Source of the DNA: a virus
Lineage: Duplodnaviria; Heunggongvirae; Uroviricota; Caudoviricetes
Direction: 5' to 3' (one strand)
IMG/VR virus record: IMGVR_UViG_2718217789_000006
Length of the DNA stretch: 64,000 nucleotides
Below the pieces are notes generated by a model. The model saw nothing but the letters and a program-made list of their open reading frames with translations. It had not been told where the DNA came from and did not search any database. Made by a program: the position numbers and the translations under genes. Below are positions 42,630 through 52,293 of this stretch, piece by piece; position 1 is the stretch's first letter; each line of letters begins with the position of its first letter.

Positions 42630-43316
42630 ATGACCCCAATAAAAATATTTATGACTATTGCTGATTTCAAACGGCCTAAATTGGAGCTCCCAAACGGGGC
42701 AAACAAACTACTACTGCACTCTTGCTGTGCTCCATGTTCCGGTGAAGTGATGGAGGCGCTTCAGGCCTCGGGAATCGACTACACCATCTTTTTCTACAAC
42801 CCGAACATTCATCCTCAGAAAGAGTATTTAATTCGTAAGGATGAAAATATTCGCTTTGCTGAACAACACGGCGTGCCGTTTATCGATGCTGATTACGACA
42901 CCGACAACTGGTTTGAACGTGCCAAAGGAATGGAATGGGAGCCTGAGAGGGGGATCCGTTGTACCATGTGTTTTGACATGCGTTTTGAGCGGACAGCGTT
43001 GTACGCTGCTGAAAATGGTTTCAGTGTGATCAGCAGTTCACTGGGCATTTCACGCTGGAAAAATATGCAGCAGGTTAACGAGTGTGGGCGGCGAGCTGTT
43101 GCGCATTATCCGGGTATGGTGTACTGGGATTATAACTGGCGCAAGCAGGGCGGCTCGTCCCGTATGATTGAAATCAGCAAGCGCGAAAAATTCTATCAGC
43201 AGGAATATTGTGGCTGTGTGTATTCTCTGCGCGATACCAATCTACACCGCAAATCTCAGGGACGCCCTCTTATCAAAATTGGCCAACTCCACTACGGAAA
43301 AGAAGAGAAGGAGTGA
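42630..43316 (+). CDS. QueH-like (DUF208) epoxyqueuosine-reductase family protein
   Basis: …[14 protein letters not shown]… and downstream Cys motifs ([16 protein letters not shown]) match the remembered DUF208/QueH signature. Confidence 0.6.
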
Positions 43317-43494: not shown

Positions 43495-44619
43495 ATGCGG
43501 ATGAAAGAATTAAATAAATTCAGAGTGATAGACCTCTTTTGTGGGGCAGGTGGATTATCTTATGGTTTTCTTCATGGAGAGATGTCTGACTACTTTGAAA
43601 GTATCCTTGCTATTGATAATAATGCTGCAGCTATAAATACCTACAATGCCAATTTTGGTTTGCATGGAGTTCAGGCAAATATTGAGGAGTGGGCATCCAG
43701 CAATACTGTTCCTGAGGCTGATGTGGTCATAGGTGGCCCCCCGTGTCAGGGATTCAGTTTATTGAATAAGAATCGTTATGGTGATCACCGAAGAGCATTG
43801 TGGGAGCCTTATATGGATGTCATTGAGCGTTCAAGGGCTTGTATGTTCGTCATGGAAAATGTCCCCGGATTGCTGATAAGCGATGAGTTTGCGGACATTA
43901 CGTTTAGAGCGAAATCCATGGGCTTTATTCTGCTTAATCCAATGGTGTTGAATACTGCTGACTATGGAGTACCTCAGACAAGAAAACGAACGATAGCAAT
44001 CGGTATCAAACGAGAACTCTTCGATGTGCATAGTATTCCGGCGTTCCCGCCAGCACCAACGCATCGTTCCCCTGATAAGGATGTCGCTTTGCCTGAATGG
44101 GTCTGTACGCGTGATGCAATTGGTGACTTACCTGCTCCTGTTGGAACTGATATTCGTAATGAACTTCCTCCGCTGAACTTACATTTTGGGCGTAATCCCA
44201 CACCTGTTTCTCTGGAGCGATATAAAGCGGTTCCACCAGGAGGTAACCGTTTCGATTTACAGAAAAAAAGACCTGATATAACCCCGGCGTGCTGGCTAAA
44301 AAAGAAATCTGGAGGGACCGATTTGTTTGGACGTCTGTGGTGGGACAGACCTTCAGTAACGATTCGTACTGAGTTTTTCAAACCGGAGAAAGGGCGATAT
44401 TTACATCCGGAAGAGGATCGGCCAATAACTCATCGTGAGGCAGCGAGATTAATGTCTTTTCCTGATAATTTCATTTTTACCGGTTCAAAAACTGAGATTG
44501 CAAAGCAGATCGGGAATGCTGTTCCACCGCTATTTGCGGCAAAAATCGCACAATATGTGTATGGAGTTTTGCAGGGACGGTATAAGAATAACATCAGTAA
44601 GAATAGTCAAGCAGCCTGA
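43495..44619 (+). CDS. DNA cytosine-5 methyltransferase
   Basis: Motif I DLFCGAGG, motif IV GGPPCQGFS, motif VI ENVPG; GAGG RBS 7 nt upstream. Confidence 0.85.
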   Translation: MRMKELNKFRVIDLFCGAGGLSYGFLHGEMSDYFESILAIDNNAAAINTYNANFGLHGVQANIEEWASSNTVPEADVVIGGPPCQGFSLLNKNRYGDHRRALWEPYMDVIERSRACMFVMENVPGLLISDEFADITFRAKSMGFILLNPMVLNTADYGVPQTRKRTIAIGIKRELFDVHSIPAFPPAPTHRSPDKDVALPEWVCTRDAIGDLPAPVGTDIRNELPPLNLHFGRNPTPVSLERYKAVPPGGNRFDLQKKRPDITPACWLKKKSGGTDLFGRLWWDRPSVTIRTEFFKPEKGRYLHPEEDRPITHREAARLMSFPDNFIFTGSKTEIAKQIGNAVPPLFAAKIAQYVYGVLQGRYKNNISKNSQAA

Positions 44620-44632
44620 AGGAAATCCAGAA

Positions 44633-45511
44633 ATGAATGGAGATTTGGTTGACAGCATAGTTGGTTTTGCTGAAGCCAGAAAGGAGTTTCATGCCCAATT
44701 GTTACTGAATACGCTCACAATTAATACTGCCGGAGTTGTTAGTAACGCAGATAGCAGTAACAAAAACAGTAAAGCTATAGCAAGAGAAATTGCTCGCTTC
44801 TTGCAGGCTGAAACGATTGGTGAACGTGTTGCAGGGCAAACATCTGGTAATCAGTTTGAGAGTATCTGCGCAGAGTTTATAGAAAAAACCTTTTTTAAAC
44901 TCAGCCACTTACGCCCTGGAAAATGGAATGTACATCAGGTTTCTGGTAGAAACAGATTAGAGATAGCTAAATATGAACAATATGCCCATCTTATAGCATT
45001 GGATAGTGCTGCAAAAAGTAATCCTCAGCTAGCTGCTGCACTGGGGAGTGATTATACGATTTCACCAGATATTATTGTTGAAAGAGAACCTGAATGTGAT
45101 CAAGTTATCAACAGTCCTGAATTACTGGTGGATGATTCTGTTACCCGCATGTCAGCTCTCAGGAGTTCGAATGGTGGGAAACCAATATTACACGCAAGTA
45201 TTTCCTGCAAATGGACAATAAGAAGCGACCGGGCCCAGAATGCTCGTTCTGAGGCATTAAATCTTATTCGCAACCGTAAGGGAAATCTCCCTCATGTAAT
45301 GGTTGTTACTGCTGAGCCTACTCCAAGTCGTCTGGCGTCTATTGCTCTTGGTACTGGTGATATAGATTGCGTGTATCATTTTGCGCTTTATGAACTTATA
45401 TCAGCAGTTGAAATACTGGGGCTCAGCGATGCAGCTGACATGCTTTCCGTGATGGTTAATGGTAAAAGATTAAAGGATATTTCTGATCTTCCCTTGGATC
45501 TTGCAGTCTGA
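44633..45511 (+). CDS. Putative type II restriction endonuclease paired with the methyltransferase
   Basis: 292-aa ORF starting 13 nt after the methyltransferase stop with AAGGA RBS; PD…K-like segment (…SPDIIVERE…ISCKWT…); assignment by context. Confidence 0.45.
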   Translation: MNGDLVDSIVGFAEARKEFHAQLLLNTLTINTAGVVSNADSSNKNSKAIAREIARFLQAETIGERVAGQTSGNQFESICAEFIEKTFFKLSHLRPGKWNVHQVSGRNRLEIAKYEQYAHLIALDSAAKSNPQLAAALGSDYTISPDIIVEREPECDQVINSPELLVDDSVTRMSALRSSNGGKPILHASISCKWTIRSDRAQNARSEALNLIRNRKGNLPHVMVVTAEPTPSRLASIALGTGDIDCVYHFALYELISAVEILGLSDAADMLSVMVNGKRLKDISDLPLDLAV

Positions 45512-47017: not shown

Positions 47018-47392
47018 ATGCTCATAGATTTGGTTTTACCTTACCCGCCGACGGTGAACACTTACTGGCGACGCCGTGGCAGCACATATTTTGTATCAAA
47101 AGCCGGGAAGCGTTATCGCCGGGCAGTGGCGCTTATTGTTCGCCAGCAGCGACTGAAATTAAGCCTGTCCGGACGGCTGGCAATAAAAATTATTGCAGAG
47201 CCACCGGATAAGCGCCGCCGCGACCTGGACAATATCCTGAAAGCACCGCTGGATGCGCTGACGCACGCGGGGTTGTTAATGGACGATGAGCAGTTTGATG
47301 AAATCAATATTGTACGTGGAAAGCCAGTATCTGGTGGACGTCTGGGGGTGAAGATTTACCCCATAATGCTTGAAGGGCAGGTCAAAAAATGA
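47018..47392 (+). CDS. rusA: Holliday-junction resolvase RusA
   Basis: …RRRDLDN…GGRL… motifs as in E. coli RusA; about 120 aa. Confidence 0.8.
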   Translation: MLIDLVLPYPPTVNTYWRRRGSTYFVSKAGKRYRRAVALIVRQQRLKLSLSGRLAIKIIAEPPDKRRRDLDNILKAPLDALTHAGLLMDDEQFDEINIVRGKPVSGGRLGVKIYPIMLEGQVKK

Positions 47393-48210
47393 AACTGGAA
47401 GATTTACCGAAATACTACTCCCCAAAATCCCCTGGCCTGACCGATGCATCGGCCTCAACGTCAAAAGATGCGCTGAGTATCACTGATGTGATGGCCGCGC
47501 AGGGCATGACACAGAATCGGGCTGAGATGGGGTTTTCTGCGTTCCTTGGGAAAATGGGCATTAGTATGAATGACAGAGAGCGGGCAACAGAATTGCTGAC
47601 AGAATATGCACTCAGTCGGTGTGATCGCGTGGCGGCGTTAAGAAAACTCCCGGCAGAAATAAAACCGGCAGTGATGCGTATTATGGCTTCGTATGCGTTT
47701 GAAGATTATGCCCGTAGCGCGGCGAGCAAAAAACAGTGCCCCTGCTGTCACGGAAAAAAATTTATTGAAAGCGAGGTTTTTACAAACAAGATCCAGTATC
47801 CGGATGGTAAGCCGCCAGTGTGGGCAAAGTGCACAAAAGGCGTGTATCCGTCTTACTGGGAGGAATGGAAAAAAGTCAGGGAGGTGGTAAAAGTTGCCTG
47901 TCCGGAGTGTGGAGGGAAGGGAGAGGTATCCACTGCCTGTAAAGATTGTCGTGGGCGCGGTGTTGCCATTCATCGTGAAGAGTCGGAAAAACAGGGTGTG
48001 CCGGTTTTCAGAAACTGTCAGCGTTGTGGTGGGCGTGGCTATGAAAGATTACCTTCAACGGAGGCATTTAATGCCATATGTAATGTAACCGATGCCATAT
48101 CTCTTGATACATGGAAAAAAACAGTTAAACGTTTTTACGATACGCTGGTGGTGCAGTTTGATATTGAAGAAGCATGGGCAGAACAACAACTGAAAAAGGT
48201 GACCAGATAG
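47389..48210 (+). CDS. Q: Late-gene antiterminator Q (QuuQ-like, Cys-rich)
   Basis: 273 aa with four CxxCxGxG repeats; between rusA and the late region. Confidence 0.6.
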   Translation: MKLEDLPKYYSPKSPGLTDASASTSKDALSITDVMAAQGMTQNRAEMGFSAFLGKMGISMNDRERATELLTEYALSRCDRVAALRKLPAEIKPAVMRIMASYAFEDYARSAASKKQCPCCHGKKFIESEVFTNKIQYPDGKPPVWAKCTKGVYPSYWEEWKKVREVVKVACPECGGKGEVSTACKDCRGRGVAIHREESEKQGVPVFRNCQRCGGRGYERLPSTEAFNAICNVTDAISLDTWKKTVKRFYDTLVVQFDIEEAWAEQQLKKVTR

Positions 48211-48215
48211 CTTTG

Positions 48216-48243
48216 TTGATTTTTCCCGAATCTGTGGTAAATT
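48216..48243 (+). promoter_or_regulatory. Candidate late promoter (pR'-like)
   Basis: TTGATT-16 nt-TAAATT just downstream of Q. Confidence 0.3.
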
Positions 48244-48292
48244 TGCCCTAACGATGGGCGTTTTATGCCTGACGTTAGAAGATTTTTTACAC

Positions 48293-48314
48293 CCCGCCGC
48301 CTGGCGGGTTTTTT
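48293..48314 (+). terminator. Candidate tR'-like intrinsic terminator
   Basis: CCCGCC-GCCT-GGCGGG hairpin plus T6, about 55 nt downstream of the candidate promoter. Confidence 0.4.
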
Positions 48315-48436: not shown

Positions 48437-48634
48437 ATGCTAAAACAGCAGGATATGACAGAAACCGCCAGAGCAGTGTTTAATGAATTAAGCGTCACCG
48501 AACCGGCGACAGTCGGGGAGATTGCGCAGAATACTTACCTTTCACGCGAACGCTGCCAGTTAATACTGACCCAGCTTGTTATGGCGGGTCTGGCAGACTA
48601 TCAGTTCGGTTGTTACAGACGCCTTCAGTCCTGA
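48437..48634 (+). CDS. Small hypothetical protein (65 aa)
   Basis: ATG at 48437 (MLKQQDMTET…) inside the 48401..48634 ORF; no clear SD upstream, so the start is uncertain. Confidence 0.4.
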   Translation: MLKQQDMTETARAVFNELSVTEPATVGEIAQNTYLSRERCQLILTQLVMAGLADYQFGCYRRLQS

Positions 48635-48784
48635 AGGCTTTTTTATTTGTGGTAAATGGGCGGCTGGTGGGTGTTAGGGGCACTCACCAGCCATCTGCTC
48701 ATGCGTCCGGATCACAAGCAAACCTCAGGCCCACTGCTTTGCGCAAAAGCAGAATGAGCCTATCAGAGACAGGCTTAATGATCC

Positions 48785-49843
48785 ATGCTTAATACTGTAA
48801 AAATATCCAGCTGTGAGTTAGTCAACGCCGACTGCCTGGAATTTATCCGGTCGTTACCCGAAAATTCTGTTGACCTGATAGTCACGGACCCGCCGTACTT
48901 TAAAGTGAAGCCCGAGGGCTGGGATAACCAGTGGACGGGTGATGAGGATTACCTGAAATGGCTGGACCAGTGTCTGGCGCAGTTCTGGCGGGTGCTGAAA
49001 CCTGCCGGAAGTCTTTACCTGTTCTGTGGCCATCGCCTGGCATCTGATATCGAAATCATGATGCGTGAACGCTTCAGTGTGCTGAACCATATTATCTGGG
49101 CGAAGCCGTCCGGACGCTGGAACGGGTGCAACAAGGAAAGCCTGAGGGCGTATTTCCCCGCCACAGAGCGCATTCTGTTCGCGGAACATTATCAGGGGCC
49201 GTATCGTCCGAAAGATGCCGGGTATGAGGCGAAGGGCAGGGCACTGAAACAGCATGTGATGGCTCCGCTGATTTCTTACTTTCGTGATGCGCGTGCTGCC
49301 CTGGGGATAACGGCAAAACAGATAGTGGATGCCACAGGAAAGAAAAACATGGTGTCGCACTGGTTCAGTGCCAGTCAGTGGCAGCTACCGAACGAAAGCG
49401 ATTATCTGAAATTACAGGCGCTGTTTGCCCGGGTGGCAGAAGAGAAGCATCAGCGGGGTGAACTGGAGAAGCCCCACCACCAGCTGCTGGAGACGTATAC
49501 TTCACTGAACCGGCAGTATGCGGAACTACAGAGTGAATATAAGCATCTGCGGCGGTATTTTGGCGTGACGGCGCAGGTGCCGTACACGGATGTGTGGACG
49601 CATAAACCGGTGCAGTACTATCCCGGGAAACATCCGTGCGAAAAACCGGCAGAAATGCTGCAGCAGATAATCAGTGCGAGCAGTCGTCCGGGTGACCTGG
49701 TTGCAGATTTCTTCATGGGGTCGGGTTCGACAGTCAAAGCCGCGATGGCGCTGGGGCGTCGTGCAACTGGCGTTGAGCTGGAGACTGAACGTTTTGAGCA
49801 GACGGTCAGGGAAGTACAGGATTTAGTCAGTCAGAACGGATGA
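48785..49843 (+). CDS. Orphan amino-group DNA methyltransferase (N6-adenine or N4-cytosine, DPPY type)
   Basis: N-terminal DPPY motif (…LIVTDPPYF…), C-terminal AdoMet motif (…DFFMGSGST…); no adjacent nuclease. Confidence 0.75.
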   Translation: MLNTVKISSCELVNADCLEFIRSLPENSVDLIVTDPPYFKVKPEGWDNQWTGDEDYLKWLDQCLAQFWRVLKPAGSLYLFCGHRLASDIEIMMRERFSVLNHIIWAKPSGRWNGCNKESLRAYFPATERILFAEHYQGPYRPKDAGYEAKGRALKQHVMAPLISYFRDARAALGITAKQIVDATGKKNMVSHWFSASQWQLPNESDYLKLQALFARVAEEKHQRGELEKPHHQLLETYTSLNRQYAELQSEYKHLRRYFGVTAQVPYTDVWTHKPVQYYPGKHPCEKPAEMLQQIISASSRPGDLVADFFMGSGSTVKAAMALGRRATGVELETERFEQTVREVQDLVSQNG

Positions 49844-49951
49844 TATTGCAGAATTAACCGGGTATCAGGTACGCCCCGAAAATTTTAAATGTCTCACAAT
49901 TCAGACGGTTGACAGTTGTCTGGTTTGCGGGGAGTTTGTTAAAAGAAACTG

Positions 49952-50067
49952 GCATGGTGAATCCCCCTGAGCGGAGGGGCATATCAGCGCAGGTGTTTCT
50001 ACTCTATCCTTTCTGTGCGGGTTCAGGTGCTGATACTGAACTCACCGGGAGGCACCCGGCACCATGC
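49952..50067 (+). ncRNA. Conserved structured non-coding element (candidate sRNA), copy 2
   Basis: Same reverse-complementary outer arms and flank hairpins as copy 1, with a different central segment. Confidence 0.35.
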
Positions 50068-50091
50068 ATATGGTTAACAGACACGTAGCGA

Positions 50092-50117
50092 AGCCCCTCT
50101 CCGGAGGGGCTTTTTTT
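50092..50117 (+). terminator. Intrinsic terminator upstream of nanS-p
   Basis: AGCCCCTC-TCCG-GAGGGGCT hairpin followed by T7. Confidence 0.65.
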
Positions 50118-50346
50118 ATGGGCAAAAAAAGCCCGCGCTGGGAGACGCGGGCGGCAAGGAATAAACAACAAAACGTGAAGTAATATTTCAGCTGGCGAAT
50201 AATACCCCATGGTAATCACTCTGCGCAACTGCGCGGCCTTTTTCGAATTGCGGGCTGTAAGTCTCCCTTCTGCCATTGTCCTGTAACTTCCGAACTTCAG
50301 CCCGCTCTTTATCTGATTCAGTACACTATCCCGGCCGGGAGGATTC

Positions 50347-52293
50347 ATGACATTTAAACATTACGATGTGGTCAGGGCGGCATCGCCGTCAGACCTTGCT
50401 GATGCACTTGCGCAAAAAATTCGTGAAGGATGGCAACCATACGGTGGGCCGTTTTCTTCGTATACGGATGATGGCGCAGCACTTATTCAGGCGATTGTCG
50501 CAGAAGGTGATGTGAGCACACCTGTTGTGGTGAAGCCGACAGGTGGAGAAGGTGCAGTAATCAGTGCCACCAGCGACCCGGAGTATTACTTTGTTGTGGT
50601 TCTGGCAGGGCAGTCAAACGGCATGTCGTATGGTGAAGGTCTTCCGCTGCCGGAGACATATGACCGTCCGGAGCCGCGTATTAAGCAACTGGCGCGTCGC
50701 AGTACGGTGACACCGGGTGGTGTCGCCTGTAAATATAACGACATCATTCCGGCGGACCATTGTCTGCATGATGTGCAGGACATGAGCCGCCTTAACCATC
50801 CGAAAGCGGACCTGTCAAAGGGGCAGTACGGAACCGTGGGGCAGGGGCTGCATATCGCCAAAAAATTGCTGCCGTTTATACCGGCGAATGCGGGCATTCT
50901 GCTGGTTCCGTGCTGTCGTGGTGGTTCAGCGTTCACCACCGGAGCTGATGGCACATACAGTGACGCGAGTGGTGCCTCGGAGAATTCAACCCGCTGGGGT
51001 GTGGACAAGCCGCTGTATAAGGACCTTATCGGTCGAACAAAAGCAGCACTGAAGAAGAATCCGAAAAATGTGCTGTTTGCCGTGGTGTGGATGCAGGGGG
51101 AATTTGATTTTGGCGGTACGCCGGCAAATCACGCAGCACAGTTTGGTGCGCTGGTTGATAAATTCCGTGCAGACCTGGCGGATATGGCAGGTCAGTGCGT
51201 CGGTGGCTCTGCTGGCGGTGTTCCCTGGATATGTGGAGATACGACGTATTTCTGGAAGCAGAAGAACGAATCCACGTACCAGACGGTGTACGGCAGCTAC
51301 AAAAACAAAACGGAAAAGAATATCCATTTCGTACCGTTCATGACGGATGAGAACGGGGTGAATGTGCCGACGAACAAACCGGAAGAAGACCCGGACATTC
51401 CGGGTATCGGATATTACGGTTCGAAATGGCGTGACAGCTCAGCCACCTGGACGTCACAGGACAGGGCGAGCCATTTCAGTTCATGGGCTCGCCGCGGGAT
51501 TATTTCCGACCGTCTGGCAACGGCGATTTTGCGCCATGCGGGAAGAGTGGCGCTAAACGCGGGGGCATCATCGACAGTATCAGAGGTGCGCCCGTCATCG
51601 CCTTCCGGTGCAGAAGCCACAGGCGTCACAACACTGCTCTCTTACCTTGCCAGCGAGTCAGAGGGAAGCCTGAAAGTACAGGGATGGTCAGCCAGTGGCG
51701 GCAAGGCAGAAGTGGTCAGCGATGCGGAGGGAACCGGAGGTAAGGCAGTGAAGCTGACCAAGGAAGCCGGTAAAAGCAGCTGGGTGCTGGAGTACGCCGC
51801 GGGCAACGGTGCGGCTCTGTTACAGAAAGGGGGGCAGATTCGCTGCCGCTTTAAGGTTTCGGGAGCGCTGGCTGCGAACCAGTATGTTATGGCGTTTTAC
51901 TGGCCGGTATCTTCACTGCCACAGGGCGTTGCCCTGACCGGAGACGGGGGGAATAACCTGCTGGCAGCGTTCTACATCCAGACAGATGCAAAAGACCTGA
52001 ATGTGATGTACCACAATGCGAAAGTGGCGACAAACAACCTGAAACTGGGAAGCTTTGGCGCATTTGATAACGAATGGCATACGCTGGCTTTCCGCTTTGC
52101 CGGGAATAACAGCCTTCAGGTGACGCCGGTTATTGATGGTCAGGATGGCACACCGTTCACGCTGACGCAGTCACCGGTCAGTGCCTTTGCGGCGGATAAA
52201 CTGCATGTGACAGACATTACCAGAGGTGCGACTTACCCGGTACTGATAGACAGCATTGCGGTGGAAGTGAACAGCACAGACACTGCGGCATGA
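50347..52293 (+). CDS. NanS-p-like sialate O-acetylesterase (intact copy)
   Basis: 648 aa; first late gene; SGNH-esterase-like core (…VVVLAGQSNGMSYGEG…); paralog of 1773..3623. Confidence 0.7.
   Translation: MTFKHYDVVRAASPSDLADALAQKIREGWQPYGGPFSSYTDDGAALIQAIVAEGDVSTPVVVKPTGGEGAVISATSDPEYYFVVVLAGQSNGMSYGEGLPLPETYDRPEPRIKQLARRSTVTPGGVACKYNDIIPADHCLHDVQDMSRLNHPKADLSKGQYGTVGQGLHIAKKLLPFIPANAGILLVPCCRGGSAFTTGADGTYSDASGASENSTRWGVDKPLYKDLIGRTKAALKKNPKNVLFAVVWMQGEFDFGGTPANHAAQFGALVDKFRADLADMAGQCVGGSAGGVPWICGDTTYFWKQKNESTYQTVYGSYKNKTEKNIHFVPFMTDENGVNVPTNKPEEDPDIPGIGYYGSKWRDSSATWTSQDRASHFSSWARRGIISDRLATAILRHAGRVALNAGASSTVSEVRPSSPSGAEATGVTTLLSYLASESEGSLKVQGWSASGGKAEVVSDAEGTGGKAVKLTKEAGKSSWVLEYAAGNGAALLQKGGQIRCRFKVSGALAANQYVMAFYWPVSSLPQGVALTGDGGNNLLAAFYIQTDAKDLNVMYHNAKVATNNLKLGSFGAFDNEWHTLAFRFAGNNSLQVTPVIDGQDGTPFTLTQSPVSAFAADKLHVTDITRGATYPVLIDSIAVEVNSTDTAA

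Follow-up and report, generated by a model that had tools for sequence, protein, structure and literature searches.

Results

Gene order at the late leader of the second prophage

The window analyzed here, a stretch of 64,000 nucleotides from a virus of the class Caudoviricetes (IMG/VR record IMGVR_UViG_2718217789_000006), carries an intact plus-strand open reading frame at 48785-49843 that codes for a DNA methyltransferase of 352 amino acids, with an ATG at 48785 and a stop codon ending at 49843. The 10 kb around this gene were 100% identical to chromosomes of Escherichia coli O157:H7, including strain 9000 and the UK bovine Z-series, and in such identical genomes RefSeq annotates a 'DNA-methyltransferase' (WP_000935553.1) at the same coordinates. 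According to the RefSeq annotation, the window contains two tandem lambdoid prophages, the second of which starts with a minus-strand integrase gene at about 32.1-33.4 kb. The integrase gene is followed by early genes, a C5 methylase and NgoMIV-family nuclease pair, DUF968, RusA, and the antiterminator gene Q, and these in turn by an ORF of 65 amino acids, the methylase, an esterase of the DUF6645/SASA type, holin, lysozyme, Rz, terminase, and the head and tail genes. The late genes flanking the methylase are intact in this annotation.

The Q gene (47389-48210, plus strand) codes for a late antiterminator of 273 amino acids and the QuuQ/PF03589 type (Pfam Antiterm, E = 5.3e-52; phrog_127 'anti-termination protein Q-like', E = 2e-113; 'antitermination protein' in RefSeq). 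Directly after it, a putative late promoter pR' with a pause element was read from the sequence by comparison with lambda (48216-48255, plus strand). The series in the window is TTGATT, 16 nt, TGgTAAATT, TGCCCT, the -10-like AACGAT (48250-48255), and GGG, while lambda pR' (NC_001416) reads TTGACT, 17 nt, GGGTAAATT, TGACTC, AACGAT, and GGG. The -10 hexamer TAAATT, the 6-nt spacing, and the AACGATGGG element are common to both. We take AACGAT to be the sigma70-dependent pause element at which Q loads in lambda, and the segment in the window would accordingly serve as a late promoter with a pause element.

Two terminators lie between this putative promoter and the methylase. The intrinsic terminator tR' (48293-48314, plus strand), found in the terminator scan, consists of CCCGCC-GCCT-GGCGGG followed by T6, and its RNA fold had a z of -2.65. 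The second, a terminator-like hairpin with a T-run found in the same scan (48621-48644, plus strand), overlaps the 3' end of the 65-amino-acid ORF and is identical in the Stx2a phage Stx2_95. Between pR' with these terminators and the methylase, the consensus scan showed no plus-strand promoter. A single minus-strand match at 49868-49840 was discarded, being below chance (1 found vs. 4.2 expected). These promoter and terminator assignments derive from consensus or homology and not from mapped transcripts; placed behind pR' and at least two terminators, the methylase occupies a Q-dependent position, suggesting that expression of this copy may depend on Q. Such a position is also consistent with a methylase that is silent in the lysogen. 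RNA structure at the methylase start codon was no better than that of shuffled sequence (z = -0.17).

The ORF of 65 amino acids upstream of the methylase (48437-48634, plus strand) is conserved and belongs to phrog_331 (E = 1.7e-37), a family of unknown function. It is possibly a winged-helix protein, matching the Pfam winged-helix families TrmB, MarR_2, and HTH_24 at sub-threshold E-values of 1e-3 to 1e-2; searches of PDB (E = 0.41) and PADLOC gave nothing. In each of the five contexts inspected, the ORF precedes the methylase by 150 nt, and it is slightly commoner, occurring at 4065 places (2142 genomes) against 3308 places (1988 genomes) for the methylase.

Downstream of the methylase, the first large late gene (50347-52293, plus strand) codes for a NanS-p-type sialate O-acetylesterase with the Pfam architecture DUF1737-SASA-DUF6645. 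Its homolog in Stx2_95 is annotated as '9-O-acetyl-N-acetylneuraminic acid deacetylase'. The interval between the methylase and the esterase gene also holds a prophage sRNA of the STnc100 family (49923-50123, plus strand), which scored 148 bits with Rfam RF02076 (gathering score 47; E = 6.4e-34), with a terminator at 50090-50113 marking its end. A 2026 preprint has tied the STnc100 and PasD sRNAs to the esterase neighborhoods of Stx phages.

The methylase is an orphan beta-class enzyme

The methylase matched PF01555 (N6_N4_Mtase) over residues 29-340, with an E-value of 6.7e-44 and 150.9 bits against a cut-off of 26.7, and Pfam detected this one domain alone, with no extra domains. The catalytic motif DPPY is located at residues 35-38 and the FxGxG motif (FMGSG) at residues 310-314. 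An N-terminal DPPY with a C-terminal FMGSG is the motif order that defines the beta class, and the protein is thus a beta-class amino-methyltransferase. It also retains every column that is invariant across 28 Enterobacterales homologs. The solved structures closest in sequence are those of M.BceJIV, RsrI, CcrM, and MboIIA. An AlphaFold2 model built from the 28 homologs had a mean pLDDT of 65, which is moderate, and was used for fold class only. The top 44 Foldseek matches to this model were all beta-class or Mod methyltransferases, among them CcrM (6pbd, E = 6e-9), M.BceJIV, MboIIA, and RsrI. Within the moderate confidence of the model, the methylase has a Rossmann-type fold like that of the solved beta-class enzymes. 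Helices were modeled at residues 146-173, 177-184, 189-194, 204-223, and 231-255.

No nuclease gene adjoins the methylase, whose neighbors are the 65-amino-acid ORF, the sRNA, and the esterase gene; the closest nuclease gene, 3.3 kb upstream, has a C5 methylase of its own as partner. Membership in a type II restriction-modification system was rejected, since a cognate endonuclease gene does not adjoin the methylase. A Dam-type (GATC) methylase was also rejected. Among the NCBIfam families, the protein matched only those of the beta class (PRK11524, CcrM), all far under the cut-off, and no Dam-type family; the beta-class motif order also argues against this assignment, Dam being an alpha-class methylase. 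The initial annotation, made from the sequence alone, had described an orphan DPPY-type amino-methyltransferase without an adjacent nuclease between Q and the late genes. Its coordinates were confirmed by the ATG-to-stop ORF, its type by the PF01555 match and the two motifs, and its orphan state by the three neighbors; its placement also holds, with Q ending at 48210 and the holin, lysozyme, and Rz genes starting at about 52.9 kb.

The methylase belongs to the M.EcoGII family

M.EcoGII is a non-specific adenine methyltransferase from a prophage of E. coli O104:H4 C227-11 (GenBank EGT69837.1), and its substrates also include ssDNA, RNA, and DNA:RNA hybrids (PMC5778455). Over the full length, 325 of 349 residues of M.EcoGII (about 93%) were identical in the methylase of the window, an identity that is good to about 1% because the reference was taken from a machine-read supplementary table with evident OCR errors (PMC11551740). 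Relative to this OCR-derived reference, the methylase carries 24 substitutions and a C-terminus that is 3 residues longer. When the reference was repaired by hand, it had no exact match in the protein collection, and the cluster members that were fetched were at most 94.6% identical to it. The two proteins (352 and 349 amino acids) share the DPPY motif, the helical recognition domain, and the FxGxG layout, and both are prophage-borne orphans. In the recognition region, residues 160-237 by the published limits (PMC11551740), 6 of the 78 residues differ. The AlphaFold2 model shows a helical recognition domain and a long helical linker, in agreement with the published AlphaFold2 description (PMC11551740).

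The methylase is also 71% identical to Anc284/SUPREM, an engineered reconstructed ancestor that still methylates without site specificity (PMC11551740). From these two identities, to M.EcoGII and to the non-specific ancestor, the methylase of the window is predicted to be non-specific. It is expected to methylate adenine in any context. Among the known site-specific relatives, the closest, M.PflMI, falls outside the M.EcoGII clade (PMC11551740). Homologs in O111 STEC, 92-94% similar, have a predicted specificity of 'nonspecific', and lysogen methylomes showed no signal from them (PMC6602927). The second prophage copy of C227-11, M.EcoGI, and the O111 STEC enzymes M.Eco95JB1I/II belong to the same family at 92-95% identity; they are predicted to be non-specific and were silent in lysogen methylomes. 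They are different mosaic alleles and, like the window copy, are predicted and not characterized enzymes.

Prevalence, conserved synteny, and missing cargo

Methylase homologs with at least 80% coverage were present in 1914 of 5426 complete E. coli genomes, about one third, at up to seven copies per genome. The exact protein occurred on 881 contigs, its 90% cluster has 5932 members, and relatives at 73-96% identity were found across Enterobacterales. A 'very large family' of M.EcoGII relatives has previously been reported from the prophages of E. coli (PMC5778455); phage 1720a-02, which was named as one of its carriers, was also among our nucleotide matches (97.8%). The methylase is an ordinary, already annotated member of a well-characterized family and is not new.

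The order of Q, the 65-amino-acid ORF, methylase, tRNAs, cargo, SASA esterase, and lysis genes was shared by Stx2_95, phiP27, a 155-kb plasmid record, and an ST648 chromosome, and the window matches this order minus the tRNAs and cargo. The cargo after the tRNAs varies by record and is stx2, stx2e, terB, or iraM. The upstream antiterminators were of four kinds, a 127-amino-acid Q, a 229-amino-acid Q, a DUF1133 protein that is presumed to be Q-like, and the 273-amino-acid Q of the window. The 'DNA methylase' genes of Stx phages (Stx2_95, phiP27 L24, 1720a-02, and Stx2c phages) are 84-98% identical to the window gene at the nucleotide level and occupy the identical position after Q/tR' and the 65-amino-acid ORF. 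Stx2_95, which has a different Q allele, showed no similarity to the window over Q and pR', whereas from the tR' hairpin through the 65-amino-acid ORF and the methylase the two were about 98% identical. Past the methylase stop codon, the homology continues for about 55 nt and then picks up again downstream of stx2B. In the Stx phages, tRNA genes and stx stand between the methylase and the esterase gene; the tRNA-Met/Arg/Arg and stx2AB segment of Stx2_95 is precisely absent from the window (49844-50346).

The co-resident type II pair

A complete type II pair is located in the nin region of the prophage (43501-45511, plus strand). The C5-cytosine methylase (43501-44619, plus strand) was identified by Pfam (DNA_methylase, E = 4e-54) and by the RefSeq start and annotation. 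The endonuclease (44633-45511, plus strand) belongs to the NgoMIV family (Pfam NgoMIV_restric, E = 1e-126) and is 65.6% identical to NgoMIV (PDB 1fiu) over 282 amino acids (E = 9.6e-119), suggesting that it shares the specificity GCCGGC. The NgoMIV site contains no adenine on either strand. Four GCCGGC sites are present in the prophage part (32-64 kb), where base composition predicts about 8. Of the 5426 complete E. coli genomes, only 35 have the full 10-kb region in which the pair lies. Directly upstream of the pair, RefSeq annotates a homolog of the epoxyqueuosine reductase QueH (42651-43316, plus strand), which is unusual for a lambdoid nin region.

Protection of phage DNA against this pair had been among the roles first suggested for the orphan methylase, and our results do not support this suggestion. 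Since GCCGGC lacks adenine and the pair has its own C5 methylase, protection by an adenine methylase would be superfluous and could not work.

Discussion

Probable anti-restriction role of a putatively Q-gated, non-specific methylase

Our results are best explained by a methylase of the M.EcoGII family that is gated by Q and hypermethylates the phage DNA before packaging, which would give protection against restriction; we consider this reading probable. The enzyme would transfer the methyl group from SAM to the N6 position of adenine with little or no sequence specificity. In the lysogen, the methylase would be silent, and harmful methylation across the genome would be avoided. After induction, RNA polymerase modified by Q would pass tR' and the second terminator, so that the methylase would be made late. 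During lytic growth, the adenines of the replicating phage DNA, and incidentally those of the host DNA, would be methylated before packaging. The virions might then reach the next host resistant to type I, II, and III enzymes with a methylation-sensitive adenine in their sites. Both the methylation of the packaged DNA and its benefit against restriction are put forward here as proposals.

Several reports are in accordance with this sequence of events. M.EcoGI and M.EcoGII are unexpressed in the lysogen, and constitutive expression of M.EcoGII is deleterious, the clones being slow-growing and unstable; the authors proposed a switch-on at induction (PMC5778455). In vitro, methylation by M.EcoGII blocks 18 restriction enzymes (12 six-cutters and 6 four-cutters) but leaves the DNA open to cutting by BamHI and PvuI (PMC5778455). 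DpnI also cuts M.EcoGII-modified DNA, and the enzyme was made in an mrr-deleted host (PMC5778455). Hypermethylated DNA is thus a substrate for methyl-dependent nucleases, and the net benefit would depend on the host. Anti-restriction in a general sense is the accepted hypothesis for the M.EcoGII family, and in the literature on M.EcoGII-type enzymes in Stx or lambdoid phages we found no in vivo test of anti-restriction.

The initial annotation had also proposed, among other checks, methylome sequencing of a lysogen, with the absence of methyltransferase activity or of motif-specific methylation as the refuting outcome. Family members stay silent in lysogens and are not expected to have a motif, so a lysogen methylome would be uninformative and would give a false negative (PMC5778455; PMC6602927). 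As a member of the M.EcoGII family, the enzyme is expected to modify adenines whatever their sequence context, with no preferred motif. The corrected reading is that of a methylase expected to be non-specific, gated by Q, silent in the lysogen, and irrelevant to the NgoMIV-like system.

Other phage-encoded modification enzymes offer partial parallels. The Mom protein of phage Mu is an unrelated protein, its chemistry is not simple N6-methylation, and it is regulated differently. In outline, it is alike in being late, lysogen-silent, and toxic, in modifying many adenines, and in giving broad anti-restriction, and a review has grouped M.EcoGII with Mom as lysogen-silent and toxic (PMC12707154). 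T4 Dam, P1 Dmt, and M.EcoVT2Dam of Stx phages are likewise phage-encoded orphan N6-adenine methylases, but they are specific for GATC. Phage Dam-type methylases are alpha-class enzymes, in which the motif order is reversed, and their genes are usually located in the early/nin region, whereas the methylase of the window is in the late leader.

Alternative roles for the methylase

An active non-specific enzyme could also have been selected for a role other than anti-restriction. Its late hypermethylation of phage DNA or of the host chromosome might aid host takeover or shut-off, disturb processes that depend on Dam, SeqA, or MutH, regulate packaging or the late genes, or serve in competition against other prophages of the same cell. 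The harm done by constitutive M.EcoGII expression (PMC5778455) and the up to seven copies per genome held by poly-lysogens would fit such a role, and reviews describe many of the orphan methylases of phages as regulators of the viral cycle (PMC12707154). Moreover, the DNA of an induced prophage presumably already bears the modifications of its current host, so that any benefit against restriction would be deferred. However, a specific target of regulation is not known, an enzyme without specificity makes a poor regulator, and the block of the 18 restriction enzymes was shown directly in vitro (PMC5778455), and we regard a role of this kind as unlikely. A further proposal starts from the constant pairing of the 65-amino-acid ORF with the methylase behind tR' and holds that the two form a functional module; alternatively, the targets in vivo might include RNA or the host chromosome, which would give the methylase a role beyond passive anti-restriction. 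In such a module, the 65-amino-acid protein might control or direct the toxic methylase, or might read m6A-DNA. We hold this proposal to be quite doubtful.

It is very unlikely that this allele is sequence-specific, for either N6-adenine or N4-cytosine. The database label 'site-specific DNA-methyltransferase', the span of PF01555 over N6A and N4C enzymes, and the 24 positions that differ from M.EcoGII would speak for such an enzyme, but the label is a generic automatic name and the catalytic motif is DPPY, while N4C enzymes usually carry motifs of the SPPY/SPPF type. In addition, the recognition region differs from that of M.EcoGII at 6 of 78 positions only, Anc284 is non-specific even at 71% identity, and M.PflMI is placed outside the clade (PMC11551740). 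RNA, such as late transcripts or the downstream tRNAs, is a highly improbable physiological substrate. In vitro, M.EcoGII does act on ssRNA and DNA:RNA hybrids, and about 30% of the A in RNA becomes methylated (PMC5778455; PMC11551740), and in most relatives phage tRNA genes directly follow the methylase. However, enzymes of the M.EcoGII clade are far more active on DNA, the methylase has Q179 like M.EcoGII and the change E179Q lowered the RNA activity of SUPREM, and in the window, which is without these tRNAs, the methylase is still intact. There is hardly any likelihood that the methylase is a silent passenger of a decaying prophage with no current function. O157 genomes carry many defective lambdoid prophages. 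Enzymes of this family have also never been seen active in lysogen methylomes (PMC6602927), but the ORF is full-length with all columns invariant across the 28 homologs kept, the exact protein recurs on 881 contigs, and the flanking late genes are intact in RefSeq. Taken together, late hypermethylation of phage DNA by a Q-gated M.EcoGII-type enzyme is the reading that we prefer.

As a discovery, this methylase has little weight, since the family has been characterized and is annotated in thousands of genomes. An M.EcoGII-type enzyme is also sold as a reagent. Whether virion DNA is hypermethylated late, and whether this helps Stx-type phages to cross restriction barriers, bears on the spread of stx phages. 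This question is general to the M.EcoGII family, and the window adds nothing special to it.

Other features of the tandem prophages

In the upstream prophage, the same slot of the late leader holds other cargo on the plus strand, namely the C-terminal part of an AraC-type ORF (15-413), tRNA-Met (442-517), tRNA-Arg (618-694), and a TerB-like ORF (792-1295). No second methylase was found at the window start upstream of tRNA-Met/Arg (442-694), the slot being taken by the AraC-type part. The NanS-p esterase of this prophage is split into two plus-strand ORFs (1773-2153 and 2157-3623), probably by a frameshift. Identical tail genes occur in both tandem prophages, those for a tail assembly protein (WP_001089939.1) and the tip protein J (WP_072643152.1) each being annotated twice. 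The long direct repeats formed by the tail genes (about 23.1-27.2 kb in the window and beyond its end) could mediate rearrangements. Three DUF1076 ORFs stand in a row (about 29494-31494, plus strand) where the upstream prophage ends, directly ahead of the next integrase gene; DUF1076 is presumably the NleG-type family of type III effectors.
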